In this document: positions 2,878-24,366 of the stretch, one piece after another
Layout of the letters: the number at the start of each line of letters is the position of its first letter
How positions within the stretch are numbered: the first letter of the stretch is position 1
Source: a virus
Virus record (IMG/VR): IMGVR_UViG_3300027832_000084
Length of the DNA: 27,916 nucleotides
Reading direction: 5' to 3' (one strand)
The notes under the pieces: generated by a model
What the model was told of the DNA's origin: nothing
Seen by the model: the letters and a program-made list of their open reading frames with translations, nothing else
The model's database searches: none
Program-made: the position numbers and the translations under genes

Positions 2878-3396
2878 ATGAATGACTACGAAAGAAAAGA
2901 TGAAGAAGGAAGAGTAATCTTTAAAAAAATGTGTGAACAACAAAAATGGTGCAAATATAAAAAAGCAGCAATAGATAAATATAGCCAATGGGATGTTGCA
3001 TTCAATGATGAAAAACATATGGTAATTGGTGAAATAAAATATAGACATCAATACGATTCAAATAACTTTTCAAATTGGTTAATTGAAATGGATAAATACA
3101 ATAGTTTAAAAGCATTACAAGCATCTTATGTAGCAAAGAATATAGATGTAAAGATATACTACATTAATCACTTTAGAAACAATTATTCATTAATTTGGGA
3201 TTTAGATTCGATTAACCTAAATGATTACCAAATAAAAAAAGTATTACTTCAAAAGAATGATTTTGATGAACAACAAGTAATGAAAGATGTAATTTATTTG
3301 GAAAGGTATGCAGCAAAATATAAAATAGAAAGTGATGAAGAGTTATCAGTATTTAAAAAAATAATAGAAGAAGATGAAGATGATTTACCATTTTAA
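2878..3396 (+). CDS. Hypothetical protein with a PD-(D/E)xK-like nuclease motif
   Basis: QWDVAF...MVIGEIKYR fits a D...hhhExK signature. Acidic C-terminus. Motif-level evidence only. Confidence 0.35.
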   Translation: MNDYERKDEEGRVIFKKMCEQQKWCKYKKAAIDKYSQWDVAFNDEKHMVIGEIKYRHQYDSNNFSNWLIEMDKYNSLKALQASYVAKNIDVKIYYINHFRNNYSLIWDLDSINLNDYQIKKVLLQKNDFDEQQVMKDVIYLERYAAKYKIESDEELSVFKKIIEEDEDDLPF

Positions 3397-3435
3397 TAAA
3401 AAAAAATAGTATCTTCAATAAAAATAAAAACAAAT

Positions 3436-3513
3436 ATGACAGAAAAAGAAAAAATAATTGAAATGCTAAATATATTATTTAGTATTGCTGATGACGAAGA
3501 TGAAGAAGAATAA
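3436..3513 (+). CDS. Possible 25-aa acidic micro-ORF (MTEKEKIIEMLNILFSIADDEDEEE)
   Basis: Translated by hand. It lies immediately upstream of the terminator at 3521. Confidence 0.25.
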   Translation: MTEKEKIIEMLNILFSIADDEDEEE

Positions 3514-3520
3514 ATAAATT

Positions 3521-3554
3521 AAACTCACCTATTAAATAGTGTGAGTTTTTTTTT
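3521..3554 (+). terminator. Rho-independent terminator closing the early module
   Basis: 8-bp stem AAACTCAC (3521-3528) / GTGAGTTT (3541-3548), running into a T9 tract (3546-3554). Confidence 0.75.
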
Positions 3555-3600
3555 AAACAATAATGTACTATTTTATATTTTAATTATATAACATAGTATT

Positions 3601-4017
3601 ATGGCCCGAAAAACAAACCCGAAGTATAAAAAAGAGGAATTAGTTAAGATGATTGTAGATTGGACAATCGATGGAGTACCTCACGCAACAATAAAAAACA
3701 ACATCAAAAGTTTTGGATATGAGGTATCTTATTTTTATTTACTAAAAAAAGAAGCAAAAGCATTAATTAAAGAAGCACTTATTGGTGTTGCTGAAGATAG
3801 ATTAGCACCAACGATAATCGAAATGGAAGAACAATATACTTTAGCATTAGATGAAGGTGATAGGAAGCTTGCTAATGAAATAAGAAAAGAGATTAATAAA
3901 ATAAGTGGTTTGCATATAGTTAAAACAGATATAACAACAAATGGTGATAGCATAAATAATATTAGCGTAATAAAAATAATTGAAATAAAAAGAGAAGAAG
4001 ATGAAACTGAAAATTAA
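3601..4017 (+). CDS. Candidate terminase small subunit
   Basis: 138-aa ORF and first gene of the late operon, upstream of TerL. Basic N-terminus with an HTH-like segment, a helical middle, and an acidic tail. The call is based on position and architecture. Confidence 0.45.
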   Translation: MARKTNPKYKKEELVKMIVDWTIDGVPHATIKNNIKSFGYEVSYFYLLKKEAKALIKEALIGVAEDRLAPTIIEMEEQYTLALDEGDRKLANEIRKEINKISGLHIVKTDITTNGDSINNISVIKIIEIKREEDETEN

Positions 4018-4222: not shown

Positions 4223-4541
4223 TCTTGAATATTTTTTAGCATTAAGAGTGAGAGTTGGATTTGATTTTGAAGGTACTTTATCAGCAAATGCAATACAAAC
4301 AATTACCAATCAATTAATAATTGCTGGAGGTACTGAAGTTTATATTATATCCTCATTAGATAATGCAGCTTCTTTATATTCATTATCACTTAAATTTGGT
4401 ATACCAATGACAAGAGTATTTGCAATGGGTAGTGATGAAGAAAAGATAAGAAAAATAAAACAATTGGGTATAAACATATTTTTTGATGCTAACCAATCAA
4501 TAGTTAATAAGTTACCTAATATAGGAAGAAGGTTAAACTAA
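4212..4541 (+). CDS. Small HAD-like protein (uncertain)
   Basis: VGFDFEGTL resembles HAD motif I (DxDxT) but has E at the second acidic position. YIISS could be motif II and FFDAN motif IV. At 109 aa there is no cap domain. Confidence 0.3.
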   Translation: MENNLEYFLALRVRVGFDFEGTLSANAIQTITNQLIIAGGTEVYIISSLDNAASLYSLSLKFGIPMTRVFAMGSDEEKIRKIKQLGINIFFDANQSIVNKLPNIGRRLN

Positions 4542-6539
4542 ATGGAATTACAATTAAAAACCACCAAGGTATTCAGTAAAAATTATGATGCATTATATAA
4601 TAGTCAAATCAGATTTATTGTTAATCAAGGCGGAACTCGTAGCAGCAAAACTTACAGTCTATGCCAAATGTTAATTGTATATGCTCTACAAAATAAAAAT
4701 AAAAATAAAACAATCTCAATCGTACGTAAAACATTTCCAGCTTTAAGAAGTTCGGTTATGAAAGATTTTTTTGAAGTGTTAAGAGATTTAAATATTTATG
4801 ATGAAAAATACCACAATAAAACTGAACACATTTATAAATTTCCAAATGGCAGTACTATATCATTTTTCTCATTAGATGATGCACAAAAAGTGAGAGGTAG
4901 AAAACACAGTATAGTGTGGTGCAATGAAGCAAACGAGTTAACCTTTGAAGATTTTAATCAATTAAATTTTAGGTGTGAAGAGAAGATGTATTTCGATTTC
5001 AATCCATCAGACACTGAGCATTGGCTATATGGTATAATAGATAGGGAAGATGCAATTAAAATACATTCAACCTACAAAGATAACAGTTTCCTTCCAAAAT
5101 CGCTTATAAAGCAAATAGAAGAGTTAATACTTGTTGACCAAGATTATTATAATATCTATGCTTTAGGGTTACCATCTAAATCAACTCACACAGTATATAA
5201 CCATCAACAATTTTATTCAGTTAGACCAGAATGTAAAGAAACAATTCTTGGTTTGGATTTTGGCTTTACGCATCCTTCAGCTTTAGTCAGATGTGATTTT
5301 AGAGAAAATGAAGTATATGTAAAAGAATTGATTTATGAAAGTTATTTAACAACACCAGAACTAATTGAAAAAGTAAAAGAAAAACTAATTGAAGAAGGTT
5401 TATTAACTTCACAGCTTATTGTTTGTGACTATGCTAGACCCGAAATCATCAGTGAGATGAATTCTGCTGGACTGAATTGTGTTAATGCTATCAAGAATGT
5501 AAAGGAAGGAATTGATGCTGTTAAATCAAAAGTATTTTTTGTAGATGAAACCTCATCAAATATCAAAAAAGAACTGGCCAACTATAAATGGAAATCTCAA
5601 GGTGAAAGAATTCTTGAAGAAGTTATTAAACAATGGGATGATGCTTGTTTTGTTGGAGATACTATGATTACAACTATAAATGGTCAAGTACCAATGAAAG
5701 ATATAATAGTTGGTGATATGGTATTAACATCACAAGGTTATAAAAAAGTATTATTAAAACATAATAACGGAACGCATCTAGTATCAAAATACTCTTTACT
5801 TTCCGATACTAATTTAGTATATTTAACTTGTACTAATAATCATAGAATAAAAACAATAGAAGGATGGACGGAGATTTCAAAATTACAATCGGAACAGACA
5901 ATTTACCAACACAAACATTTAACGGAAGAACATATAAATTATATCCCAACCGAAAATATTTCACACAACACAAACATCATATGCACCAACAAGTTTGGGA
6001 ATTTCATAATGGACCAAGAAAAAAAGGTTATCACATCCATCACATCAACGAAAACAGATGGGATAATAGAATTGAAAACTTGGAAGAAAAAGAAGCGTCT
6101 AAACATTTATCTGAACATTCAAAAGAAAGATGGGATAATAAAAGTGAGGAATCTAAAAAGGAATTTCATTCAAAAGGTATTGAAGCAGCAAAGATATGGC
6201 ATAAAAGTGAAGAGGGTAAACAATGGCACAGTGAACACGGTAAAAAATCTTGGATTAATAGGGTTAAAACCATTAAACAATGTGAACAATGTGGAAAAGA
6301 ATATGAAACTCACATTCCAACCAGAAGTAAATACTGCCATAACAACTGTAAAGCTAAAGCACTTAGAGCAAGGAGAAAGCTGGATGGAGGAAGTGTATGA
6401 TTTAACTATCGAAGATTGTAGTGAATATTTTGCTAATAATGTATTAGTACATAATTGTGATGCTGTTAGATACGGTGTGTTATATTATAAAAGAAATAAT
6501 ACCCAAGCTAATTTTGAATTTGTTTCATTTACTTTTTAA
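4542..6539 (+). CDS. terL: Terminase large subunit (PBSX/XtmB-like) interrupted by an intein; predicted mature protein 395 aa
   Basis: Walker A-like NQGGTRSSKT, Walker B-like SIVWCNEANE, and an RNaseH-like nuclease half (GLDFGF..., WDDA|CDAVRYG after intein removal). Confidence 0.85.
   Translation: MELQLKTTKVFSKNYDALYNSQIRFIVNQGGTRSSKTYSLCQMLIVYALQNKNKNKTISIVRKTFPALRSSVMKDFFEVLRDLNIYDEKYHNKTEHIYKFPNGSTISFFSLDDAQKVRGRKHSIVWCNEANELTFEDFNQLNFRCEEKMYFDFNPSDTEHWLYGIIDREDAIKIHSTYKDNSFLPKSLIKQIEELILVDQDYYNIYALGLPSKSTHTVYNHQQFYSVRPECKETILGLDFGFTHPSALVRCDFRENEVYVKELIYESYLTTPELIEKVKEKLIEEGLLTSQLIVCDYARPEIISEMNSAGLNCVNAIKNVKEGIDAVKSKVFFVDETSSNIKKELANYKWKSQGERILEEVIKQWDDACFVGDTMITTINGQVPMKDIIVGDMVLTSQGYKKVLLKHNNGTHLVSKYSLLSDTNLVYLTCTNNHRIKTIEGWTEISKLQSEQTIYQHKHLTEEHINYIPTENISHNTNIICTNKFGNFIMDQEKKVITSITSTKTDGIIELKTWKKKKRLNIYLNIQKKDGIIKVRNLKRNFIQKVLKQQRYGIKVKRVNNGTVNTVKNLGLIGLKPLNNVNNVEKNMKLTFQPEVNTAITTVKLKHLEQGESWMEEVYDLTIEDCSEYFANNVLVHNCDAVRYGVLYYKRNNTQANFEFVSFTF
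5646..6455 (+). mobile_element. Intein (270 aa) within TerL
   Basis: Block A CFVGDTMITT begins with Cys at 5646-5648. Block B is TCTNNHRI. Blocks F/G are VYDLTIEDCSEYFANNVLVHN, ending in His-Asn at 6450-6455. The +1 Cys is at 6456-6458. Confidence 0.85.
5864..6400 (+). CDS. HNH endonuclease, nested inside the intein in the -1 frame relative to TerL
   Basis: 178-aa ORF containing HQQVWEFHNGPRKKGYHIHHINENRWDNRIENLE (HNH core) and a C-terminal CEQCGKEY...CHNNC zinc-finger-like motif. The TerL frame stays open across the whole ORF. Confidence 0.8.
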   Translation: MDGDFKITIGTDNLPTQTFNGRTYKLYPNRKYFTQHKHHMHQQVWEFHNGPRKKGYHIHHINENRWDNRIENLEEKEASKHLSEHSKERWDNKSEESKKEFHSKGIEAAKIWHKSEEGKQWHSEHGKKSWINRVKTIKQCEQCGKEYETHIPTRSKYCHNNCKAKALRARRKLDGGSV

Positions 6540-9410: not shown

Positions 9411-11132
9411 ATGCCACTTTCACTTTCAATAGTAAAACAACCAGCAGCATCGCTAACTCATAAGATATTACCAGTATATAATGGTTTACCTTTTATCGTT
9501 ACATCAAATAACTTTAATAGACAAAATTTTAAATATGTAGCTGATATTTATGTTAATAATAAATTAGTGACAACTTTAAAACATAATAAAGATATCACCG
9601 CATTAAACTATGGTATTTTTGATATTGGTAGAGTTGTTGAAAACTTTATTAAAACACCACCAACAATAATTGGCTCAAATGGATTTACAACAAGTAACCA
9701 ATCAGCTACTGCTTTATATCAAATAAAGTTTGGAGCTGAGTATGAAAGATATATTGAGTTTACTTCTATATCAAATAATGCTGGTAATTCTAGATTATCA
9801 ATTAATAACTCATTAAATGGTCAACACGATGTTGTTGCTGGTGATTACATTACAATTCAAAACGCTTCTAACAATTATTACAACGGAACCTTCTTAGTTA
9901 TATCAGTAACCACTTTAACTATTACTATATCAAAACCATTTACGAATACAGCAAGTGGTTTATTAATTGAAGGAGAAGGATTCTTTGATAACTATTATGT
10001 TAATAATATTGGGTTAGGTGGTGTAGTTGGATTTGCAATTTCTAACTCTAGACCAAGTAAAATAAATATTGGTGATTTAGTTGTTGTTCAACAAAATAGT
10101 AATGCAACAATTAAAGGGTATAATGGTGAGTGGTTAGTTGTTGATAAATTATCTAACGTAAATATTGGTGGTGCTTTTTATACTGTTATAGTAACAAATT
10201 GTCCGTTTTTTGGAAGTACACCAATTAATGGTGGGAGTATTTATTCTAAATCAAAATACAAATATAGAAATACAGTTACCTCATCAGTTGAATATGCTTG
10301 GGATGCTGCTTTACAATATAAAGAAGCATTAGTTTGGAACCCCTCAGTACACTCAATGAATGTAACAAATAAAGGAGCATTCTTAACTAGAGCACCAATA
10401 GCTAAAAATATTAGACTTAATGAGATAGATTCACTTTCTTTTTTCAATACATCTATCACTGGTGGACCTTCGGTGTCTAAGGGTGTATTTAAAACATACA
10501 ATGCAGCTAATTCTTTGATAACTAGCGCATCTTACTTTATGCCAATAACTAGTTTAATTAGAATTGATTTAATGACTGGAACAAAAAACATATTTGTATC
10601 GGTACCATTAAATGGTGTTAGTTACTACACAGTTGAGTTACAAGATTCTGCATCGAATAGGTTAAGTGAAATACGTAGATATAATTTAGATAGAGTTTGT
10701 TACAGATATTCACAGTATCGTTTTAAATGGTTAAATAGATTAGGTGGATGGGATTACTTTACATTCAATTTAAGAAGTGATAAATCAGTAAGTGTACAAA
10801 GAAGTTTATATAGTGGTCAATTAAAAACTTATCAACCAAATAATAGTACATTCAATTATAAAATGGGTGATAGTACTAATAGAGTATATAATGTGAAAGC
10901 AAATGATTCTGAAGTAGTATTTAGTAATTGGTTAACAAATGCTGAATCATCTTGGTTAGAAGAATTATTTACTAGTCCAGAGGTTTATATGTTAATTGGT
11001 GATACGACAGACACTTTACCAATTATATTAACTGATACTGATTATACAATAGGTGAAAAAGAAAATATAGGTTTATTACAATATAAAATAGGATTTAAGT
11101 ATTCTAATAACAAAGTTATTCAAAGAGGTTAA
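9411..11132 (+). CDS. Large tail/baseplate structural protein
   Basis: 573-aa ORF, rich in N/S/T/G as expected for beta-rich proteins, lying next to the fibre genes. No specific motif recognised. Confidence 0.5.
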   Translation: MPLSLSIVKQPAASLTHKILPVYNGLPFIVTSNNFNRQNFKYVADIYVNNKLVTTLKHNKDITALNYGIFDIGRVVENFIKTPPTIIGSNGFTTSNQSATALYQIKFGAEYERYIEFTSISNNAGNSRLSINNSLNGQHDVVAGDYITIQNASNNYYNGTFLVISVTTLTITISKPFTNTASGLLIEGEGFFDNYYVNNIGLGGVVGFAISNSRPSKINIGDLVVVQQNSNATIKGYNGEWLVVDKLSNVNIGGAFYTVIVTNCPFFGSTPINGGSIYSKSKYKYRNTVTSSVEYAWDAALQYKEALVWNPSVHSMNVTNKGAFLTRAPIAKNIRLNEIDSLSFFNTSITGGPSVSKGVFKTYNAANSLITSASYFMPITSLIRIDLMTGTKNIFVSVPLNGVSYYTVELQDSASNRLSEIRRYNLDRVCYRYSQYRFKWLNRLGGWDYFTFNLRSDKSVSVQRSLYSGQLKTYQPNNSTFNYKMGDSTNRVYNVKANDSEVVFSNWLTNAESSWLEELFTSPEVYMLIGDTTDTLPIILTDTDYTIGEKENIGLLQYKIGFKYSNNKVIQRG

Positions 11133-11136
11133 TAAA

Positions 11137-14076
11137 ATGGAATATAATATAATAGTACAATCGCAGGATAAAAATCAAACTTTTAAATTAGATTTATTTG
11201 GTAATGAACAAATATCAGTTATATTTAACGTAGTTGATGTAAGAGCACCAGAATCATTAAAAAGTAATTATACAAAAGAATTTATTATACCAGCAACAAA
11301 GGAAAATAATAAATTCTTTGAAGGTATTTTATATGAAGGATATACAACTAATAAATTCAATCCAAATTTAAAAGTATCTTGTCAATTAAATTATGATAAC
11401 ACGACACTTATTGATGGATTTTTACAAATAGTTAAAGTTAATAAAAATGATAATAAACTAGATAGTTACTCAATCATTATATACGGTGAACTATCAAATG
11501 TATTTAAACAAACTGAAGGTTTATATTTAAACGATTTAGATTTATCTGAATATAATCACATATGGTCATATGAAAATGTTGTACATAGTTGGGATATTTC
11601 AGTAATAAAAAACAATATACCAGTTCCTTTTATAAAGGGTAATGGTTACGTTTATCCTTTTGAGCATCGTGGTCAATCTGGTTCAGAGGATACTGCTAGT
11701 TTGGATGTAATGAATGTTGAAAACTTTTTCCCATCAATTTATGTTAAAACCATTATTGATAGTATTTTCACTAAAACAAATAATAAATATAATTCAAAAT
11801 TTTTTAATAGTTCTTTTTTCAGAGGTTTAGTATTACCTTATACAAAGGGGCATATGTATATTGATGAAGAAGCAAAAAAATTAAAAGAGTTTTCTGCTGT
11901 AAAAACTAGTGAACAATTCGTATTTAAATTTAGAGCTACTGTTCCAACAACATCACCCACCAATTTTATTACATTTCAAAATAAAGTTGACCCAGGTAAT
12001 ATATTTCTAAATCAAATATCGCTTCGTCCAAAAAATAAACAATCCTCATTATATGCTATAAAACTTAAGCTTAAATTAAATTTTAGAGCAGCTGTTAGTC
12101 CATCTGCACTATGGAAAATTATTGGTCCAGAATTCATAGCTAATGTATATTTAAAAAACTCAACAACTGGTGTAATAATTGCATCCAATAATATTAGTAT
12201 TCCTTATCCAAAAGCAACTGCCATTGGACCAGCTGGTATGGCGGACGCAACAATTGATTTAATATTAGATTATAATGGTTACTTTGCTGAATTAAACAAT
12301 CATATAATTAACGTAACCTTTACTATGCCAGATGGTCCCGAAAATTCAAAATTTATATCAATAAATGGTGGTGATGTTAATGGTGAGATTAACTGTTTTG
12401 TAATGCCAGAAAGTGAAGTTGTTTTAGCAACGACTGATTCTTGGTTATTTGAAGGTGATAAAATTGTTATTTCAAGTACACTTCCAGATAATATTTTAAT
12501 TAAAGATTTTTTAACGTCATTGAATAAAATGTTTAACCTTTATTGGGTTGCAAATAAAGATGGAGGTTTTGATATAGAACCACGTGATACATTCTATAAC
12601 AAAAGTGATGTTAGAATATTAGATTGGACCCAAAAGATTGATGAAACGCAAGAAATCACTATATCACCTTTACAAGAAATTGATGCTAAAACTTACTTCT
12701 TTCATAAAACACCAGATAATGATTATTACAATAAGCTTTATACTATATCAAATAAAGAAATATATGGTGAACGTAAGATTGAAGTTGAAAATGATTACGT
12801 TACTTCAACCAAAGAAATTGTACCTATCTTTTCACCAACAATATTATTATCTTATAAAGGTACAGATAGAATAGTGAATACAATTGCTGATTATGCTGAT
12901 GGATTTTTTGAAACATATGATGGTAATATTAGAATATCACAATATGGTGGTGTTAAATCAACATCTCAACCTTGGCTATTTAAACACAAAGGAAATTCTG
13001 ATGGTGCACAATATAGTAAATACCCATATTCTGGCCATTACGATGACCCTATGGTACCAACAAAGGATATAAACTATGGTCAAGCTAAACATTATTTATA
13101 TAGTTGGAAAAATACAACAACAAGTAATCTATATAATGATTTTTGGAAAAATACTATTAATGATTTAACAGCAATTGATTCACATATCTGGAAAGGTAAA
13201 ATGCGTTTAAAGTATTTTGATATTATTGATTTTAATTTATTTGATACAATTCAAGTTAATCAAGTTTATTATAAAATTAATAGTGTTAGTTACAATGCAA
13301 TAACTGAAATAGCAGAAGTTGAATTGTTTAAAGCTAATTCATTTGGTGGAACTCCTAGTAAATTAGGTATTCCAGTAACAACAGTTAGTGAAGTATATAC
13401 AGATTTTAGACAAGAAACAGAACTACGTAAAATAACTGGATGGCAATCAACAACATTTAAAAATAAATTTGTTAATCTAAACGAAGATGTTCTTCGACCT
13501 ACTGGTATCTATCGTGATGTAATTAGATGGCAAAGAGATACAACTGGTGGTGTTCTAGCATTTAAAAATAATGAATCAATGACAAAAGCTGGTAATATAC
13601 AACAAAAATCATTTGGAATTGGTCCAAACATTCAACGTAATGTAAACGCAAACATATACGAGAAAGGAGCTTTTATTGAATTGAATGGTGTTAATAATAA
13701 TGTTGGTCCACAATCATCAAGTATCAAAGCATTAGGTAATAACAACCAAATACAACAAAGATGTAAAAACATTTCAATCGTTGGAAATAATAACTTTATT
13801 GATGCTGGATTAACTAATGTTACTGTTATTGGTGATAATCAATACATTACAAAAAGTAATACTTCATATATTAATGGTACAGTTATTAGTAATGGTTTTA
13901 TAACACAAGATTTTAACTTTATAAATGCAAGTGTTAATGAAGTTCAAAACCCATTTGAAAGTAGTGTTAATGGAAACTTCATTCAATGTGGTAAAAATGC
14001 TGTTCAAAATATTGGTGGAGTTACAAAAAAAAATAAGATAATTTCACCAGTATTATTTGACACAAACAGAATTTAA
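11137..14076 (+). CDS. Large tail/baseplate (hub or tip-like) structural protein
   Basis: 979-aa ORF. The C-terminal part has N/G/V/I-rich short repeats (GNNNQIQ, GNNNFID, GDNQYIT) that suggest a beta-helix. Confidence 0.5.
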   Translation: MEYNIIVQSQDKNQTFKLDLFGNEQISVIFNVVDVRAPESLKSNYTKEFIIPATKENNKFFEGILYEGYTTNKFNPNLKVSCQLNYDNTTLIDGFLQIVKVNKNDNKLDSYSIIIYGELSNVFKQTEGLYLNDLDLSEYNHIWSYENVVHSWDISVIKNNIPVPFIKGNGYVYPFEHRGQSGSEDTASLDVMNVENFFPSIYVKTIIDSIFTKTNNKYNSKFFNSSFFRGLVLPYTKGHMYIDEEAKKLKEFSAVKTSEQFVFKFRATVPTTSPTNFITFQNKVDPGNIFLNQISLRPKNKQSSLYAIKLKLKLNFRAAVSPSALWKIIGPEFIANVYLKNSTTGVIIASNNISIPYPKATAIGPAGMADATIDLILDYNGYFAELNNHIINVTFTMPDGPENSKFISINGGDVNGEINCFVMPESEVVLATTDSWLFEGDKIVISSTLPDNILIKDFLTSLNKMFNLYWVANKDGGFDIEPRDTFYNKSDVRILDWTQKIDETQEITISPLQEIDAKTYFFHKTPDNDYYNKLYTISNKEIYGERKIEVENDYVTSTKEIVPIFSPTILLSYKGTDRIVNTIADYADGFFETYDGNIRISQYGGVKSTSQPWLFKHKGNSDGAQYSKYPYSGHYDDPMVPTKDINYGQAKHYLYSWKNTTTSNLYNDFWKNTINDLTAIDSHIWKGKMRLKYFDIIDFNLFDTIQVNQVYYKINSVSYNAITEIAEVELFKANSFGGTPSKLGIPVTTVSEVYTDFRQETELRKITGWQSTTFKNKFVNLNEDVLRPTGIYRDVIRWQRDTTGGVLAFKNNESMTKAGNIQQKSFGIGPNIQRNVNANIYEKGAFIELNGVNNNVGPQSSSIKALGNNNQIQQRCKNISIVGNNNFIDAGLTNVTVIGDNQYITKSNTSYINGTVISNGFITQDFNFINASVNEVQNPFESSVNGNFIQCGKNAVQNIGGVTKKNKIISPVLFDTNRI

Positions 14077-14108
14077 AAATAATATACTTTAAATAAAACT
14101 AAAAATAA

Positions 14109-16214
14109 ATGAGTGGATTAAATATTCAGAATTCTAGAATCACCCTAAAATATTCAACATTAACTGGTGATACACCAACGATAGCACCATCACTTGACCA
14201 CACAGATGGTACTTGGAATGCAAATGATATTTATATTGGTGAGGTAATGATTAACGTTGCTACAGATGCAATGTGGTTTCGTTCTTTAAATGGTATAATT
14301 CCGATTACATCTGGAACAACTACAATAGATAGCACAGCATTTTTAAATACTAGTGGTGGTACTTTAACTGGTCCACTTTTTGGTCCATCAATTTCAGCAA
14401 CTACTATTTCAGCAACTACTTTTTATTCCCCATCATTTAATGGAACTTTCTTTGGTGATGGTTCTAATTTAACTGGAATAACTGCAACAGTATTTACTGG
14501 AGGAACTATATCTGGTCCAACTATCTTTACTAACAATGTTGATTTATGTGGTGCTGTAGTGACCATAGAATCACTTTCTGGATGTGGTGGTACATCTATT
14601 CAATTTTTCTCTAGCATTGATGCTGTTGGTCATTCTATTTCAGCAACTACTTTCTTTGGTGATGGTTCTGGTTTAACTAATTTACCTTATATGTCTGGTG
14701 TTACTTTACAAGAAGTATTAGATTTAGGTGACACATCTACCAATGGAAGTATAGTATTGCAAAATGGAAATATAATATTAGATTCTGGTACTTTCTTTGG
14801 TGATGGTGCTGGTTTAACTAATATTCCATTTGGTCCAACACCAACATTAGAAGATGTATTGTTAATTGGTAATGTTTCAACAAACTCATCTATCCTATTA
14901 ACTAATGGGAGTATTGTATTAGATAATGGTATTTTTTATGGTGATGGTTCTGGTTTGTCTGGGTTAACTGTAACTGCTGATTTTACTGGAGGTACTGTTA
15001 CTGGTTCAACTAATTTTACTAATGGAATAACAGCAACAACTATATCCGCAACAACATACTTAAATTTACCAACTGCTGAAACACTGCAACAAACATTAGT
15101 CGCTGGCAATACAACTGGTAACAATTGGATTGAAAGTTCTAATCTATATGGTATGAGAAGTGTAAATGGTCTAGATGATAGAAGATTTACGTTTAATCCA
15201 GATGCAATAAATATTTCAGCAACAGACGATATTGGAAATGGTGAAATTGAAATTAATAATAGTGGTGTTATTACATTGTATTCAAGTAGTGGATTCTATC
15301 ATACGTTAGAAGATGGTGGTGGTAGTAATGCTGATTTCGTTATTAGAGGTTATACTGGTTTTAAAGGAGCTGAATACTTTGCAGATTATAGTGCAGATTA
15401 TACAAACAGAAGTTTAGTTGATAAAGGATATGTTGATAGTAATATATCTGCAATTACATTTTTACAAGATAGTGGAACAACAAGAAATTCAATTATAAAA
15501 GTAGATAGTAATGGAAATGCTACGGGAACAAAAGTTGCCAATAATGCCACACCTACAACTTATTCTGAATCTATATTTTCTGATGATTTTTATCAATTAA
15601 AAACAACGGATGTAGATTTCACTACAATTTTTGGTGTTGCTGCTGGTGGTATTAATATAGAATGTAAGAATACTACAACATTAGATGAATCTGCTGTTTA
15701 TATAAATACTAATAAAATTGAAACCTTTCTCTGGAATGCTGAAACTACTAAATCTGGTTATTATCAAATAATAAAAGAATTAAGTTCAGCTACTCAAACT
15801 GTTGGTGTTTCAATACAAGAAAGTATTGGTGCTACATCTGTATATAAATTTTCCAGAAGTATATTACAAAATGCTAGTACAACAAACATTCTTTTATTTT
15901 CAACAAGATTAGGGGCTGGAATACCTAGCGATAATTTAGTTTTTGTTGAAATTAAACTTATGGGTAGTAACTTATCAGATGGGAATAAAGTTTATATGGG
16001 TGATATAAAACAAGGGTTACGTTGGCTAGGTAATACTCCAACATTAATCGGTACCGCTATTTCTAGTGTTTTTTCAACAACTGAAGCTGGAACTAAATTT
16101 TCATTAACAACAGATGCTACACATTTAATACTTAACGTAGACAATGCTGAATTATCTTCTGCACAAATGGATTGGTCTGCTCACATTACATTAACACTTA
16201 AACTTAAATTATGA
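14109..16214 (+). CDS. Tail fibre / receptor-binding protein
   Basis: 701 aa with four copies of F(F/Y)GDG(S/A)xL(T/S) at aa 114, 182, 229 and 276. Repeated SATT segments and a G/T/S-rich composition. Confidence 0.65.
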   Translation: MSGLNIQNSRITLKYSTLTGDTPTIAPSLDHTDGTWNANDIYIGEVMINVATDAMWFRSLNGIIPITSGTTTIDSTAFLNTSGGTLTGPLFGPSISATTISATTFYSPSFNGTFFGDGSNLTGITATVFTGGTISGPTIFTNNVDLCGAVVTIESLSGCGGTSIQFFSSIDAVGHSISATTFFGDGSGLTNLPYMSGVTLQEVLDLGDTSTNGSIVLQNGNIILDSGTFFGDGAGLTNIPFGPTPTLEDVLLIGNVSTNSSILLTNGSIVLDNGIFYGDGSGLSGLTVTADFTGGTVTGSTNFTNGITATTISATTYLNLPTAETLQQTLVAGNTTGNNWIESSNLYGMRSVNGLDDRRFTFNPDAINISATDDIGNGEIEINNSGVITLYSSSGFYHTLEDGGGSNADFVIRGYTGFKGAEYFADYSADYTNRSLVDKGYVDSNISAITFLQDSGTTRNSIIKVDSNGNATGTKVANNATPTTYSESIFSDDFYQLKTTDVDFTTIFGVAAGGINIECKNTTTLDESAVYINTNKIETFLWNAETTKSGYYQIIKELSSATQTVGVSIQESIGATSVYKFSRSILQNASTTNILLFSTRLGAGIPSDNLVFVEIKLMGSNLSDGNKVYMGDIKQGLRWLGNTPTLIGTAISSVFSTTEAGTKFSLTTDATHLILNVDNAELSSAQMDWSAHITLTLKLKL
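14703..14975 (+). repeat. Tandem duplication of roughly 44-47 codons inside the fibre gene
   Basis: TLQEVLDLGDTSTNGSIVLQNGNIILDSGTFFGDGAGLTNIP... aligns with TLEDVLLIGNVSTNSSILLTNGSIVLDNGIFYGDGSGLSGLT... Confidence 0.8.
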
Positions 16215-16857: not shown

Positions 16858-19770
16858 ATGGCTAAAGAAACGGTAAATATAGATTTAATAATTAATGCTT
16901 CACAATCTGCAAAAACATTAAAGGAACAGAGGGAAGCATTAAAATCAATTCGAGATGGATTAGATAACGTTAAAGAAGGTTCTGGTGCATTTGAGTTATT
17001 AAATGAAGAAGCGACTAGATTAACATCTTCAATGGATAATCTTACTTTATCGTTTGAAGATGTTTATGGACAAGGTGTTAAACCACTTAGTTCTCAATTA
17101 GGTGAACTAGAAGATAGAATGTATCAAATGGCATTAGCTGGTGATACAACATCAGATAGTTTCAAAGAAATTCAACAAGAAGCGATTAGAATGCGTAAAA
17201 CCATTATTGATGTTGATGCTTCAGTTGATGCATTTGCTGATAAGGGTGCTAGGTTAAATTCATTTATTGGTATTGTTTCTGGTATTGCTGGTGCTTTTGC
17301 TGTTGCTCAAGGTGCGGCTGCATTATTTGGTAGTGAGAATGAAGAAGTTCAAAAAAGTTTATTAAAGGTTCAAGCGGTACTAGCTATATTGAATGGTTTA
17401 CAAGAAATAAATAGGTTAATTACAGAGAAGAATATTATTGTACAAAAGATACTTAACTCAACAATGTTGAAGAATCCTATTTTTATTATACTTGCTGTTT
17501 TAACTGCTGTAACAGCTGCTTGGGCTTTATTAACTAGAGGTATTGATAACAATGAAAAAGCACTTAAAAAACAATCAGAAACTAATATTAAAGTTATTAG
17601 TGATTTAAAAAGAGAAGAAGAACAAAATAAAAAGCTTGGTTTAAGTATTGATGAGGTTAGAGATAAAAGAATTGCTGCTGAAAAAGTTCAAATTAAAATT
17701 CAAGAAAAACAATTAGCTAAATTAATTAACGATTTAAAAATAGCTGAAATAGCATATCAAACAACACAAGATAATTTAAATTCATCAATCCCAGAAGCAA
17801 TATGGTTTAGACTATTTGGTACTTCTAAAAAAGATTTAACTGATTTAAAAGATAAATTAAAAGAAACATCTGATGCTTATAAAGATTCTTCTAATTCTGT
17901 ATTAGTTGATGAGAAAACTGCAGCTGATGAAAAAATACAAATATTAATTAATCAACTTGAAAGAGAAAGAGCTTTACAAGAAACTCGTGGAAAAGAAACA
18001 ATAGCACTTGATAGAAGAATCTTAGATTTAAAATTAACATTATACAATAAAGATAGTCAAGAATATAAAAACGTTATAAATGAAAAATCAATTCTTGAAG
18101 TAAATTATACTAAAAAGATTAAAACTCAAACAGAAGATAGAATTAAACTTCAAGAAGAATATCAAAAAAAATATTTAGATATTATTGAAAATATTAATGA
18201 TAGAGAAAAAGATTTAACTAACGAATTATATTTAAATCTTGAAGAAGGTGTTGCTAAAGAGTTAGCGTTAATAGAAGTTGCTTATGGCGAAAAACTTGAT
18301 TTAATAGAAGAACAACAAAAAAATGATATTGCTGAAGCTGAAAAAGCTGGTAAGGGTTTATTAGATATTAACAAAAAATATAGTGATATTTTATTAATGG
18401 AAACTGCGCTATTTAAAGATAAATATAAAACAACTATATTATTATCATTAACAGAAAGTAATGACCAATTTTCAAGTGATATGGATAAAAACACAAAATT
18501 ATCATTAAGAAGAATTGAATTGGAAGTTAGCAAAAGTATTGATATAGTAAATGAAGGTATTAAGGATGGTACAGTAGATTACGAAGCTGGTGAAGTTAAA
18601 AAAATAGCAATATTAGAAGTGGCTTCAAAATCTAAGCAAACAATATTAGATGAATCATATGAAGAACAGACGAAAGCATTAAAAAGTAACTCAGACGTAT
18701 ATATAAAGATAACTAAAGATAGACTACTTAAAGCTCAGAAAGAAGAAGAAGAAGCACAAAATCGATTAAACGAAGCTACTGAAATTGGTGAAAAAATGGC
18801 CATAACGGGAGCTGAATTAAATTTTTCTAAGAAAACAGCTATAACCAAAGAATTAAGTGCTGAACTTGTAAAATTAGAAACTGAAAATCGTAATAATTTA
18901 TTAACGATAGAAGAAGATTACTATAATAAAAGTAAAGATAATGCATATGATTCTTTTGAAGCACTTAAAGAAATTGCTAAAACTGCCACAGAAGAAACTA
19001 TTAATTTTATATCTCAAATAACAATTAATTCTTTAAATTTAATTAACTCAATTCAAAATAGCATAACTCAAAATAAATTATCCAACATTGAAAGAGAAAG
19101 AACATCAGCGTTAGAAGCTGTAGAAGCTGAAGAAAATGCTTATAATAAATCAATTGAAAACAAAACAAATAAAGAAAAAGCTCAAGAGATAATTGCTGAA
19201 AAATTTGAAAATAAGAAACGTGCAATTGAAAAAGCTGCAACTTTAGAAAAAAATGAAGCTGAATATAAAGGGCAAATTCAATCTTGGGAATTTAGTAAAG
19301 CACAAGCTATTGTTAACTTGAGTAATGCTGTTTTAAAAGCTGCGCCTAATCCTTTTTTAGTTGGTACAACGATTGCTTTAGGTTTTGTGGAGTTAGCTAC
19401 TATAACAGCAAATAAACCAGTTAAAAACTTTGCAACTGGTGGTTTGGTATTGGGTGAAGGAACTGGAACATCTGATTCAATTCCAGCTAATTTATCGAAT
19501 GGAGAATTTGTAATTAATGCTAAAGCAACTGCGGCTAACTTACCTATCTTACAAGCAATAAATAAGAATGGTGGTAAATCTCAAATAGTTAATACACCTC
19601 AAAGTAGTAATAATAATATGGTTCAAGTAGCTCAAGTAATTGATACAAGTAGATTGGAAGCTTTAATTGAAATGGTTATTGATAGACCAATTAAAACCTA
19701 CGTAGTTTCGTCTGATATCACCTCATCTCAAAATAGTGATAATAGATTAAAAGATAGAATAACATTCTAA
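16858..19770 (+). CDS. Tape measure protein (or internal ejection protein)
   Basis: 970 aa, largely coiled-coil (K/E/L/I-rich). Hydrophobic segments FIGIVSGIAGAFAVAQGAAALFG and NPIFIILAVLTAVTAAWALLT. C-terminal GGLVLGEGTGTSDSIPANLSNGEFVINA motif. Confidence 0.55.
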   Translation: MAKETVNIDLIINASQSAKTLKEQREALKSIRDGLDNVKEGSGAFELLNEEATRLTSSMDNLTLSFEDVYGQGVKPLSSQLGELEDRMYQMALAGDTTSDSFKEIQQEAIRMRKTIIDVDASVDAFADKGARLNSFIGIVSGIAGAFAVAQGAAALFGSENEEVQKSLLKVQAVLAILNGLQEINRLITEKNIIVQKILNSTMLKNPIFIILAVLTAVTAAWALLTRGIDNNEKALKKQSETNIKVISDLKREEEQNKKLGLSIDEVRDKRIAAEKVQIKIQEKQLAKLINDLKIAEIAYQTTQDNLNSSIPEAIWFRLFGTSKKDLTDLKDKLKETSDAYKDSSNSVLVDEKTAADEKIQILINQLERERALQETRGKETIALDRRILDLKLTLYNKDSQEYKNVINEKSILEVNYTKKIKTQTEDRIKLQEEYQKKYLDIIENINDREKDLTNELYLNLEEGVAKELALIEVAYGEKLDLIEEQQKNDIAEAEKAGKGLLDINKKYSDILLMETALFKDKYKTTILLSLTESNDQFSSDMDKNTKLSLRRIELEVSKSIDIVNEGIKDGTVDYEAGEVKKIAILEVASKSKQTILDESYEEQTKALKSNSDVYIKITKDRLLKAQKEEEEAQNRLNEATEIGEKMAITGAELNFSKKTAITKELSAELVKLETENRNNLLTIEEDYYNKSKDNAYDSFEALKEIAKTATEETINFISQITINSLNLINSIQNSITQNKLSNIERERTSALEAVEAEENAYNKSIENKTNKEKAQEIIAEKFENKKRAIEKAATLEKNEAEYKGQIQSWEFSKAQAIVNLSNAVLKAAPNPFLVGTTIALGFVELATITANKPVKNFATGGLVLGEGTGTSDSIPANLSNGEFVINAKATAANLPILQAINKNGGKSQIVNTPQSSNNNMVQVAQVIDTSRLEALIEMVIDRPIKTYVVSSDITSSQNSDNRLKDRITF

Positions 19771-22941: not shown

Positions 22942-24366
22942 ATGGGAATATTTAATTTCAGAAAAGAATTAAAAATACAAGAAAAAGAAATTGAAACTGG
23001 TGCAACAATTATTGATAATGTAATAAGATTAGCAGCTTCATCAAACTTACCAAGAATTATTGAAAATAAAAATAAAGAATGGGTTGAATATGGTAACGAT
23101 AATAACTATCCAAACTTTTTGGAAACATTATTCAATTCATCACCAACACACCAAGCTATTGTTAATTCTAAAGCACTTATAACAGCTGGTGATTCAATAA
23201 CCTTCAATGAAAATAAAGTAATGTTAGAACAAAACAATTTATTAAATCAGATGATTTATTTTATTGATGGTAAAATGACACTCGAAGAACTTATTCAATT
23301 AATAGCATTAGATTCTGAACTATACGGAGCATTTGCTTTACAATTAATTTGGTCAATTGATAAAACAAAAATTGTTAGTGTTGAAAGAATTTCACCTAAA
23401 CATATTCGTTCTGGTAAATTTGAAGATGGCAAAATAAAAGAATATTTTTATTCTAGAAACTGGTCAGACCGCAAGGAAGAAATATCACAAATTGCAGCAT
23501 TCGATACAAATGATAAAGAAAATCTTAGACAGTTACTTTATGTGCCTATTGCATTAATTACAAACGAATACTATGGTGAGGTTAGTTATTTAGCTTCGAT
23601 AAACTGGATAAGTTTAGAATCGCAATGTGGTGAATATTACAAATCCCTTTTGGATAATAATTTCTCTCCTTCAATGATTGTTAAGTTTTTCAGAAAACCA
23701 GCGAATAATGAGGAAAAAGATATGATTGTTAGTGGATTAAAAGAATCATTCGGTGGTACCAAAAATGCTGGAAAAGTTATTGTTAGTTTTTCTAGTGATA
23801 AAGATAGTGCTCCCGAAATTACACCAATTGATGTATCTAATGTTGATAAACAATTCTTAGTATTATCTGACCAAATTCAATCAAAAATACTTACGGGTGG
23901 CAGAATTACAACACCAGAGCTTTTAGGTATCGCAATACCAGGTTCATTGGGTGGTGCTGATTTTGCATCACAAGTAGAAGCATTTCAAAAATTTGTTATC
24001 AGACCAACACAAAAGAAAATAGAAATTATTTTAAATAAAATATTTATTATCAATGGATTAGATATTAATATTGAAATTAAACCTTATATTTTAACAGCAA
24101 ATAAAGTTGATGAAACCTCATCAATAGCTAGTCCAGTTCAATCTGAAACAGTAATTGATATTGAAGCACAAGCTAAAGCATCATTAAAAGGTTCAGTTGG
24201 TGGTGTACAAGGTATACTTTCTATCCAACAATCAGTAGCTGCTGGTACAACAGATTACCTTAGTGCTTTAGCTATTTTGGATTTAATTTACGGTATAAGT
24301 GAAATAGAAGCGAGAAGAATTTTAGGTTCACCATTAAATAACACACAAAATAATACTATAATATAA
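22942..24366 (+). CDS. Portal protein candidate
   Basis: 474 aa, a size and composition typical of portals. Contains TTPELLGIAIPGSLGG, a segment similar to ones I recall in portal families. It is the only ORF of suitable size without another assignment. Confidence 0.55.
   Translation: MGIFNFRKELKIQEKEIETGATIIDNVIRLAASSNLPRIIENKNKEWVEYGNDNNYPNFLETLFNSSPTHQAIVNSKALITAGDSITFNENKVMLEQNNLLNQMIYFIDGKMTLEELIQLIALDSELYGAFALQLIWSIDKTKIVSVERISPKHIRSGKFEDGKIKEYFYSRNWSDRKEEISQIAAFDTNDKENLRQLLYVPIALITNEYYGEVSYLASINWISLESQCGEYYKSLLDNNFSPSMIVKFFRKPANNEEKDMIVSGLKESFGGTKNAGKVIVSFSSDKDSAPEITPIDVSNVDKQFLVLSDQIQSKILTGGRITTPELLGIAIPGSLGGADFASQVEAFQKFVIRPTQKKIEIILNKIFIINGLDINIEIKPYILTANKVDETSSIASPVQSETVIDIEAQAKASLKGSVGGVQGILSIQQSVAAGTTDYLSALAILDLIYGISEIEARRILGSPLNNTQNNTII

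Follow-up and report, generated by a model that had tools for sequence, protein, structure and literature searches.

An HNH Endonuclease Gene in the −1 Frame of a Phage Terminase Intein: Anatomy, Recurrence, and Probable Homing Role

The Terminase Locus

The IMG/VR virus record IMGVR_UViG_3300027832_000084, a stretch of 27,916 nucleotides (nt) with a G+C content of about 27% that was analyzed as a whole and is referred to as the window, carries a gene for the large terminase subunit (TerL) that is interrupted by an intein, and within the intein a complete HNH endonuclease gene is written in another reading frame of the same strand. The TerL precursor open reading frame (ORF; 4542–6539, plus strand, as are all parts of this locus, 665 residues) comprises N-extein, intein, and C-extein in one unbroken frame, with no stop codon between 4542 and 6537, and matches the Pfam families Terminase_3 (1.3e-29) and Terminase_6N (2.1e-13). 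Its N-extein of 368 residues (4542–5645), delimited by alignment A1 with the intein-less homologues P0001 and P0004, ends in ...KQWDDA. The N-terminal splicing domain of the intein follows (5646–5909), with Cys1, block B (T63-N-N-H66), and the terminal sequence ...EGWTEISKLQ. After a passenger linker rich in K, N, I, and T (5910–6365, residues 457–608), the frame enters the C-terminal splicing domain with blocks F and G, VYDLTIEDCSEYFANNVLVHN (6366–6455), which is kept in all relatives that share the nested layout. The C-extein (6456–6539) consists of Cys+1, DAVRYG..., 27 residues in total, and the stop codon, as established by comparison with an intein-less allele.

The HNH ORF (5864–6400, 178 residues) is read in the −1 frame (frame 3) relative to TerL. 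Its ATG (5864–5866) is made from the intein codons GGA|TGG (Gly-Trp), and a TAG (5843–5845) shuts the HNH frame 18 nt 5′ of it. According to the stop map, openness of the −1 frame is confined to 5846–6397, with an interruption every 10–40 nt elsewhere, and the third frame contains about 30 stops across the same stretch. Three segments can be recognized in the encoded protein: the HNH_3 catalytic core (residues 39–79, 5978–6100) with H59/H60, N68, and N72, and with H81 just beyond it; a family-specific helical motif, WHKSEEGKQWHSEHG (residues 112–126, 6197–6241); and a CxxC...CxxxC zinc ribbon formed by C140, C143, C158, and C162 (6281–6349), which appears as a β-hairpin in the structural model. 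Gene callers report TerL alone at this locus and miss the nuclease.

The Intein and Its Empty Allele

The insert is an 810-nt (5646–6455) class 1 intein inside the TerL nuclease motif, and all residues expected of this class are present: Cys1 (5646–5648), T63-N-N-H66, H269-N270, and then Cys+1 at 6456. The first, sequence-only reading of this DNA had described intein blocks A, B, F, and G with a terminal His-Asn and a +1 Cys, and the junctions are exactly those it gave, namely ...KQWDDA|CFVGDTMITT...TCTNNHRI...VYDLTIEDCSEYFANNVLVHN|CDAVRYG, from which excision yields WDDA-CDAVRYG. When the linker is deleted in silico, the remaining intein matches solved mini-inteins over its full length, the best being 4o1r (Npu-type DnaB; 4.2e-7) and gp41-1 (6qaz; 6.8e-5), with 1mi8 also found. 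The central part of the TerL frame had been read as devoid of an endonuclease motif; in agreement with this, Pfam returns no endonuclease, and indeed no match at all, in the 152-residue linker. A scan with NCBIfam matched no intein model and no HNH model.

Intein-less TerL homologues are 393–395 residues long. The closest, the metagenomic P0001 (loci L020/L021), is 96% identical to the window's TerL in protein sequence, and its locus, with about 94% DNA identity, differs from that of the window by exactly the 810 nt between 5646 and 6455. The alignment with P0001 thus confirms both the junction and the proposed insertion point within the nuclease motif. The sole other change at the junction is at the +1 position, where the intein-less allele has TTG (Leu) and the window TGT (Cys): the intein-less junction reads GATGCT|TTG GATGCTGTTAGATA, the L020 sequence around the insertion site reads GATGCT|TTGGATGCT, and, centred on that site, the allele reads ...AATGGGATGATGCT|TTGGATGCTGTTAGATATGG... 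In an AlphaFold2 model of the whole precursor, the exteins have pLDDT (predicted local distance difference test) values mostly of 80–93. Judged by its sequence, the insert is an intein; it is a precise in-frame insertion that a close TerL homologue is missing. The intact catalytic residues, together with the essentiality of TerL, lead us to infer that it undergoes protein splicing.

The HNH Nuclease

The −1-frame ORF that had been proposed, with its start at 5864, its HNH core, and its cysteine finger, appears in the ORF listing and matches the Pfam family HNH_3 at 2.8e-13 (49.7 bits against a cutoff of 24.8); no match to Endonuclease_7 was found at E ≤ 0.1. A total of 87 word-indexed homologues, 108–254 residues in length, were retrieved. 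Across the 41 homologues of alignment A2, H59, H60, N68, N72, and H81 are invariant, as are C140 and C143 among the zinc ligands, while C158 and C162 are nearly invariant. Within the helical motif, W112 and H113 are invariant and S115, G118, W121, and H122 nearly so, and the motif is common to all distant nested and free-standing homologues. The HNH ORF is modeled by AlphaFold2 with a mean pLDDT of 94. By profile comparison, the nearest solved protein is I-HmuI (1u3e; E = 0.003), and a Foldseek search of the PDB with the HNH model gave weak matches only, I-HmuI again ranking first.

The longer members of the family are tandem HNH_3-like duplications or a portal-like fusion. Seven proteins (P0208, P0214, P0217, P0218, P0221, P0224, and P0211) repeat the module 'F.G..Y...H..vW...G.IP' at the N-terminus; this copy is a second HNH_3-like domain, apparently degenerate, and P0211 carries additional N-terminal zinc ribbons. 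In P0336 (472 residues), the HNH is fused to a sequence resembling a portal protein, possibly through read-through or as an assembly artefact.

Recurrence of the Nested Layout

The nested layout was followed in 91 loci, drawn from isolated phages or deposited records (5), metagenomic relatives (5), and the best IMG/VR relatives (80). In all 91 nested copies, the HNH gene lies in the −1 frame and the TerL frame is free of stops across the overlap, so that the stops in relatives that would have counted against the sequence-only reading are absent.

A tblastn search with the HNH ORF found matches inside the annotated TerL of four unrelated phages, i.e., Clostridium phage phiCDHM19, Rhodobacteraceae phage LS06-2018-MD07, Acinetobacter phage Highwayman, and Tetrasphaera phage TJE1, none of which has an HNH annotated there; a fifth match fell in a human fecal phage contig. 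All five have an intein at the TerL nuclease motif, D-[DH]-x | C-D-A-x-R-Y, within a few residues, with an unrelated in-frame middle part and an HNH ORF of 160–220 residues in the −1 frame. The same layout is found in five metagenomic TerLs that are about 50% identical to that of the window.

A profile scan of IMG/VR yielded at least 490 confirmed relatives. The best 80 of these are without exception nested in a host ORF of roughly 650–750 codons with the same frame relation, and each retains an HNH ORF that is 160 codons or longer and includes one or more CxxC; since they are the closest HNH relatives, this census describes the window's clade and not the whole HNH family. Clustering at 60% identity separates their host ORFs into no fewer than 42 groups, and 74 of these ORFs match the window's TerL extein, the remaining six being cut by a contig end. 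As a natural control, eleven homologues in a free-standing or split context carry 1–14 stops in the corresponding frame.

Selection on the Two Frames

The openness of both frames is not accounted for by chance. Each of the five xTA codons of the HNH frame (three TTA, one ATA, and one GTA) is followed by a codon beginning with C or T, which bears out an earlier observation, and none of the four xTG codons is followed by A. When the HNH protein is held fixed and its codons are resampled, 4.9–5.4 stops are expected in the TerL frame, and the probability of none ranges from 2e-4 to 1.4e-3 depending on the codon table. The converse resampling kept the TerL-frame peptide constant; here the HNH frame would be expected to contain about 19 stops, and it was open in 0 of 20,000 resamplings. 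Across the nested elements, the probability of a stop-free TerL frame extends from <2e-4 up to 0.11.

Conservation is unequally distributed between the two frames. Among the window and its five closest full relatives, the HNH frame shows 56% amino acid identity over the overlap and the TerL frame 39%, and nucleotide differences at HNH codon positions 1, 2, and 3 amount to 0.32, 0.31, and 0.46. TerL-frame residues 457–608 (5910–6365) have AlphaFold2 pLDDT values of 25–35. These figures indicate that purifying selection acts on the HNH frame. Given its weaker conservation and predicted disorder, the TerL frame need only stay open: the linker appears to be merely kept free of stops and is not detectably selected as a protein. 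The claim that both frames must be functional therefore goes too far; the TerL frame across the overlap is only open, less conserved, and predicted to be unstructured.

About 40 nt around the HNH start (5850–5900; ATGGA.AGAGATTTC..AAATTACAATCGG) are near-invariant in relatives that are about 50% identical in protein sequence (alignment A3). Constraint on both frames in this segment, which the HNH N-terminus shares with the last part of the N-terminal splicing domain, would be expected to have this effect.

Production of the HNH Protein

Three distant relatives carry a Shine–Dalgarno sequence with canonical spacing before the HNH start, inside the intein: AAAGGAG-8 nt-GTG in phiCDHM19, GGAGG-7 nt-ATG in the Rhodobacteraceae phage, and AAGGTG-7 nt-GTG in the Acinetobacter phage. 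In the window's clade, the HNH ATG is present in all 73 evaluable viral loci, is located 18 codons ahead of the F.G..Y motif in 57 of them, and is usually made from the intein codons xxA-TGG (x-Trp). The leader preceding it in this clade is A-rich and predicted to be unstructured. RNAalifold detected no consensus structure around the HNH start and no sign of a regulatory hairpin or frameshift stimulator. In the relatives, the HNH frame is closed by a stop 0–9 codons upstream of the ATG, and in four loci no codon upstream of it is open, so that a ribosome shifting over from the TerL frame would have virtually no space to enter. Internal initiation at 5864 is therefore the favoured route to the HNH protein.

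Mobility, Decay, and Origin

For 55 non-redundant complete elements, the distances between Hint domains correlate with those between HNH proteins (r = 0.47, a value reached in 0 of 300 permutations), whereas the correlations of Hint and HNH with the exteins are weak (0.18 and 0.22). Moreover, elements that are 71–72% identical occur in TerLs that are just 33–35% identical. This pattern indicates that Hint and HNH travel together and move between terminases. The empty allele, the divergent hosts, and the decayed copies point to a sporadic, mobile distribution of the element, and the enzymes probably recognize a highly conserved motif of TerL. That the HNH is a homing nuclease, as initially suspected, is the most likely role in view of this distribution and of the empty, near-identical allele.

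Decay is visible in a sixth metagenomic relative (L023, the locus of P0012; 2802–3032), in which the HNH catalytic core and zinc ribbon have been deleted. The deletions are multiples of three, so that both frames remain open and 76 HNH-frame codons are left; this locus may capture an endonuclease in the course of being lost, with a mini-intein as the outcome. Similar deletions of the HNH region occur in P0023 and P0109, as seen in the protein alignment only.

Free-standing HNH homologues are located 12–66 nt downstream of intein-less TerL genes, about 100–150 nt from the intein site, in Pseudomonas phage PAE1 (L006), FBPa53 (L013), SN1 (L014), Poludnitsa (L010), and a metagenomic locus (L026). 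Neither the 87 word-indexed matches nor the best 150 of 1,051 strong representative clusters included an in-frame Hint–HNH fusion. The adjoining free-standing homologues and the missing in-frame fusion fit the invasion of a mini-intein rather than the frameshifting of a canonical intein. The Poludnitsa ORF is unannotated, and in PAE1 another annotated homing endonuclease follows two genes later.

Other Arrangements of the Same HNH Family

Vibrio phage 1.238.A (NC_055735; L012, 161–3889) has a TerL that is split at the same motif. Its N-part ends in an intein N-half, HDDA|CSSGDTL..., with a stop at 3037; an HNH of the same family occupies 2923–3633 in the −1 frame; and an ORF at 3560–3889 encodes the intein C-half and C-extein (VVHN|CDT). 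From its sequence, this isolated phage seems to contain a 'fractured gene' that has a split intein. A separate intein with LAGLIDADG-type sequence, judged by eye, is situated near the N-terminus of this TerL. Lactobacillus phage CL2 (NC_028835; L009, 473–2774) has a comparable organization: the annotated TerL ends in the intein N-half AHDH|CLTGDTIV...ATGDHLILTENGWKEL, an annotated HNH comes next (1967–2590), and an unannotated ORF (2490–2774) supplies the intein C-half and the TerL C-extein, FIVHN|CMDATRY. Neither of these two TerLs is annotated as split.

In Exiguobacterium phage vB_EauM-23 (MH844558; L007, 2290–3280), TerL ends in ...EDKNNHSMAA*, exactly at the intein site. It is followed by a G+C-rich stretch of about 210 nt, a same-family HNH with a Shine–Dalgarno sequence, a short CDATRYAMEMD...* frame, and the portal gene, and Hint motifs are absent from the locus. 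The insert is probably an HNH-bearing intron located at this same position of TerL; the assignment is unproven because it gives only a partial Rfam match to Intron_gpI of 11.9 bits.

Outside the terminase, a same-family HNH (P0174, 49% identical) was found in a metagenomic locus of a thiamine pyrophosphate (TPP)-dependent enzyme (L024/L025, 1351–4961), between the ORFs for its N-domain and its M/C-domains. A fragment of the downstream gene is duplicated there (PLLIIGNGARGLDW.KFGIPIITTRLGIDLI at 2123–2287 and again from 3500), and the 3′ end of that gene is overlapped by an Endonuclease_7 ORF on the opposite strand (4473–4961). Inspection by eye of the ORF translations listed for this locus revealed no Hint motifs.

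Comparison with Known Systems

The sequence-only reading knew of no overprinted, separately translated endonuclease inside an intein; however, earlier cases are described in bioRxiv 10.1101/2025.01.02.630785, bioRxiv 10.64898/2026.09.14.751524, and PMC11855218. According to the second of these, out-of-frame intein endonucleases were first noticed by Gorbalenya in 1998 ('Non-canonical inteins'). The window's element has the features of this class: splicing blocks in the host frame, a middle part without a fold, a full endonuclease ORF in another frame, and both frames open.

A close parallel is offered by actinobacteriophage inteins in which Gosselin, Arsenault and Gogarten (bioRxiv 10.1101/2025.01.02.630785) described an endonuclease-VII-like nuclease 'in reading frame 3 relative to the intein'. 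The same preprint reports antisense LAGLIDADG and Vsr-like nucleases, names terminase as one of four host proteins for non-canonical intein types, and predicts that such inteins are under-annotated. In both systems, the nuclease is encoded on the same strand in frame 3 (−1), at the place that an in-frame endonuclease domain would occupy; the host frame is open and its peptide unstructured; and free-standing relatives of the nuclease exist. The authors also propose the same origin, i.e., a free-standing endonuclease gene invading an intein. Unlike the endonuclease-VII-like actinophage enzymes (IPR004211), the window's nuclease combines HNH_3 with a zinc ribbon. The hosts differ as well, with low-GC uncultured phages and phages of Clostridium, Acinetobacter, Rhodobacteraceae, and Tetrasphaera here, and so does the abundance, with at least 91 loci compared with a handful of actinophage cases. 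In a tblastn search with the TJE1 copy, no PhagesDB-type actinophage was present among the 60 matches listed or the ten most frequent organism names, with 388 further records outside these.

A cyanobacterial dnaX intein with an out-of-frame LAGLIDADG endonuclease has been described by Phillips et al. (bioRxiv 10.64898/2026.09.14.751524). It likewise has a homing endonuclease in an overlapping ORF, purifying selection on the endonuclease frame with relaxed selection on the host frame, a sporadic distribution, and mini-intein derivatives. The window's element differs in having an HNH instead of a LAGLIDADG enzyme and in residing in a phage TerL rather than a cellular dnaX; the frame or strand is also different, the dnaX endonuclease being given as a '+2 ORF' in the 2026 preprint and as antisense in the 2025 preprint.

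'Hidden' HNH endonucleases are further known from mycobacteriophage DNA methylases, namely the ShiLan domain and Pacc40 (PMC11855218). As in the window, an HNH protein with zinc fingers (about 195 residues) is encoded in the third frame of a host gene whose own frame is stop-free, free-standing homologues adjoin the same gene in relatives, the distribution is sporadic, and no ribosome-binding site was detected. In contrast to the window's element, ShiLan and Pacc40 have no Hint domain, and the insert is thought to remain in the protein. In the window, insertion into an essential catalytic motif is possible because protein splicing would remove the junk peptide.

Fractured genes, in which split inteins flank a free-standing endonuclease gene, led Dassa et al. 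(2009, PMC2677866) to a model of stepwise invasion. The similarities lie in the position of the endonuclease ORF at the endonuclease-insertion point of the intein and in the phage genes affected, which include terminase, and in Vibrio phage 1.238.A and Lactobacillus phage CL2 relatives of the window's HNH do show this split arrangement, at the same site of TerL. In the window itself, the host frame is continuous, so the intein is a cis-splicing one and the gene is not split; the endonucleases of Dassa et al. are GIY-YIG and Vsr-like, not HNH. Finally, I-HmuI and the free-standing phage HNH_3 genes share with the window's nuclease the HNH_3 core and an extended multi-domain DNA-binding architecture, though I-HmuI is encoded in a group I intron and the similarity is weak.

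An out-of-frame endonuclease within an intein is thus already known, including phage cases in frame 3. What appears to be new is the HNH_3 and zinc-ribbon family, which is not detectably related to the endonuclease-VII-like enzymes of actinophages; the breadth, with at least 91 loci in phages of several phyla; and the finding that a single nuclease family takes several forms at a single site. A literature search found no publication tying inteins to TJE1, phiCD119, or phiCDHM19.

Interpretation and Alternatives

The observations are best explained by a composite homing element in the TerL nuclease motif, made up of a Hint splicing domain and a separately initiated HNH homing endonuclease, a reading to which we assign a probability of roughly 0.8. 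The Hint domain in the TerL frame would excise itself after translation together with a meaningless 152-residue linker, restoring ...WDDA-CDAVRY... The −1 frame of the linker region holds an entire gene for an HNH_3 and zinc-ribbon homing endonuclease, which would be translated separately from the internal ATG built of conserved intein Gly-Trp codons. During co-infection, the HNH protein would cut intein-less TerL alleles, and repair would then copy intein and HNH together. Because TerL is essential, selection purges stops from its frame across the overlap, while selection for protein sequence falls on the HNH frame. The origin most likely lies in a free-standing HNH gene that entered a mini-intein situated at, or close to, the site this gene targets. 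The anatomy of the locus, its conservation, the frame-specific selection, the presence/absence polymorphism, and the co-inheritance of Hint and HNH are direct observations on which this reading is built. The sequence-only description proved accurate throughout, and none of the three conditions under which it would have fallen applies: profile matches are present, the TerL frame of nested relatives is open, and compensating indels are excluded.

Several points weigh against it. Splicing, initiation at 5864, cleavage specificity, and origin by invasion are all inferred. In the profile searches that had been suggested, the HNH match is above threshold, but the Pfam matches on the Hint side, at the two ends of the insert, stay below it (Hint_2, 25.2 bits against a cutoff of 28.4; Intein_splicing, 23.2 against 35.8), the splicing domain being recognized through the match of the linker-deleted intein to mini-inteins. 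The structural similarity of the HNH model to I-HmuI is weak in Foldseek (E = 0.067; template modeling score, TM, 0.26), a low TM being expected since the HNH model is extended and multi-domain. No Shine–Dalgarno sequence was found before the HNH ATG in the window, nor in 69 of the 73 loci of its clade. The 80 of 80 result samples one clade, the HNHs nearest the window's, and gives no family-wide frequency. The uniform −1 frame, in turn, provides no independent evidence for a mechanism, as common descent explains it.

The simplest prior for such a locus is an ordinary in-frame HNH intein whose apparent frameshift stems from two compensating sequencing or assembly indels, or from two recent decay mutations, and homopolymer runs that could invite such errors are present in the region, e.g., A8 at about 6019–6026. 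This explanation is hardly credible given the identical frame relation in 91 independent loci from isolates and many metagenomes, a TerL frame that is stop-free beyond what codon resampling predicts while free-standing homologues carry 1–14 stops, HNH ORFs with their own start codons and Shine–Dalgarno sequences, and the lack of any in-frame Hint–HNH protein among the homologues searched. Compensating indels can be regarded as excluded because unrelated phages have the layout independently of one another and stops are selected against; on this comparative evidence, the arrangement is no sequencing artefact. Programmed frameshifting could produce the HNH either by a −1 shift, resulting in a fusion of N-extein, N-terminal intein half, and HNH, or by a −1 followed by a +1 shift, resulting in a canonical intein. 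The consistent −1 frame of every nested copy, the A-rich sequence just upstream (ATAAAAACA), and the lack of Shine–Dalgarno sequences in the window's clade would agree with it. Nevertheless, it is very improbable: the HNH frame is shut within 0–9 codons upstream of the conserved ATG, with nothing open in four loci, canonical slippery heptamers (X XXY YYZ) are absent from the gap, RNA structure prediction shows nothing conserved at the site, distant relatives possess a Shine–Dalgarno sequence and start codon, and the common descent of Hint and HNH accounts for the uniform frame.

Two further alternatives accept the separate HNH gene and dispute its role. The sequence-only reading had raised the possibility of a domesticated terminase accessory similar to HK97 gp74, which would aid the cutting of genome ends instead of homing. 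Free-standing homologues nearly always adjoin terminase genes, and HNH–terminase partnerships are known in HK97-like phages (PMC3592412, PMC11855218). An obligatory partnership is nevertheless contradicted by the close TerL with 96% protein identity, and about 94% DNA identity across the locus, which has neither intein nor HNH, and by L023, which dropped the HNH core and kept its TerL frame intact. The element also moves among TerLs that are 33–35% identical, the nearest solved relative of this HNH_3 protein is the homing enzyme I-HmuI, and the same HNH family occurs in a non-terminase gene, that of the TPP enzyme, all of which makes an accessory role unlikely. There is similarly little probability that the HNH ORF is a decaying relic, unexpressed or inactive, with the intein effectively a mini-intein with a long linker. 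Degenerate versions do exist in L023 and, by protein alignment, in P0023 and P0109. The window's HNH, however, retains every invariant catalytic and zinc-binding residue and yields a confident model, codon-position variation points to purifying selection on its frame, and all 80 viral relatives keep the long ORF with its CxxC.

The relatives could be arranged into a broader picture, which we regard as possible but tentative, at slightly less than even odds. One ancient monophyletic element, consisting of Hint and a −1-frame HNH_3/zinc-ribbon gene that starts in a conserved intein Trp codon, would then form, together with the free-standing, split-intein-spacer, and probable-intron forms, a natural series for the gain of endonucleases and the origin of split inteins. 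This element may have reached dozens of TerL lineages among phages that infect several bacterial phyla, mostly without being annotated. One TerL site with free-standing, overprinted, and split forms, along with a fourth, intron-like form that is unverified, provides material for the model 'splicing domain first, endonuclease invades later' as well as for split-intein origin. The overlap is also a case of asymmetric dual coding, in which one frame is selected as protein and the other avoids stops, and could serve for the calibration of methods that detect overlapping genes. It further suggests that Hint domains tolerate a linker of about 150 residues of arbitrary sequence.

Genomic Context

A nucleotide search with the TerL locus against GenBank phages gave no match, and five of the seven ORFs of at least about 350 residues that were tested (9411–16214 and others) had no match in PHROGs. 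The window contains no tRNAs. Its portal gene (22942–24366) is situated about 16 kb downstream of TerL, which is an unusual gene order, and a tape-measure/endolysin-like ORF (16858–19770) lies between the two.

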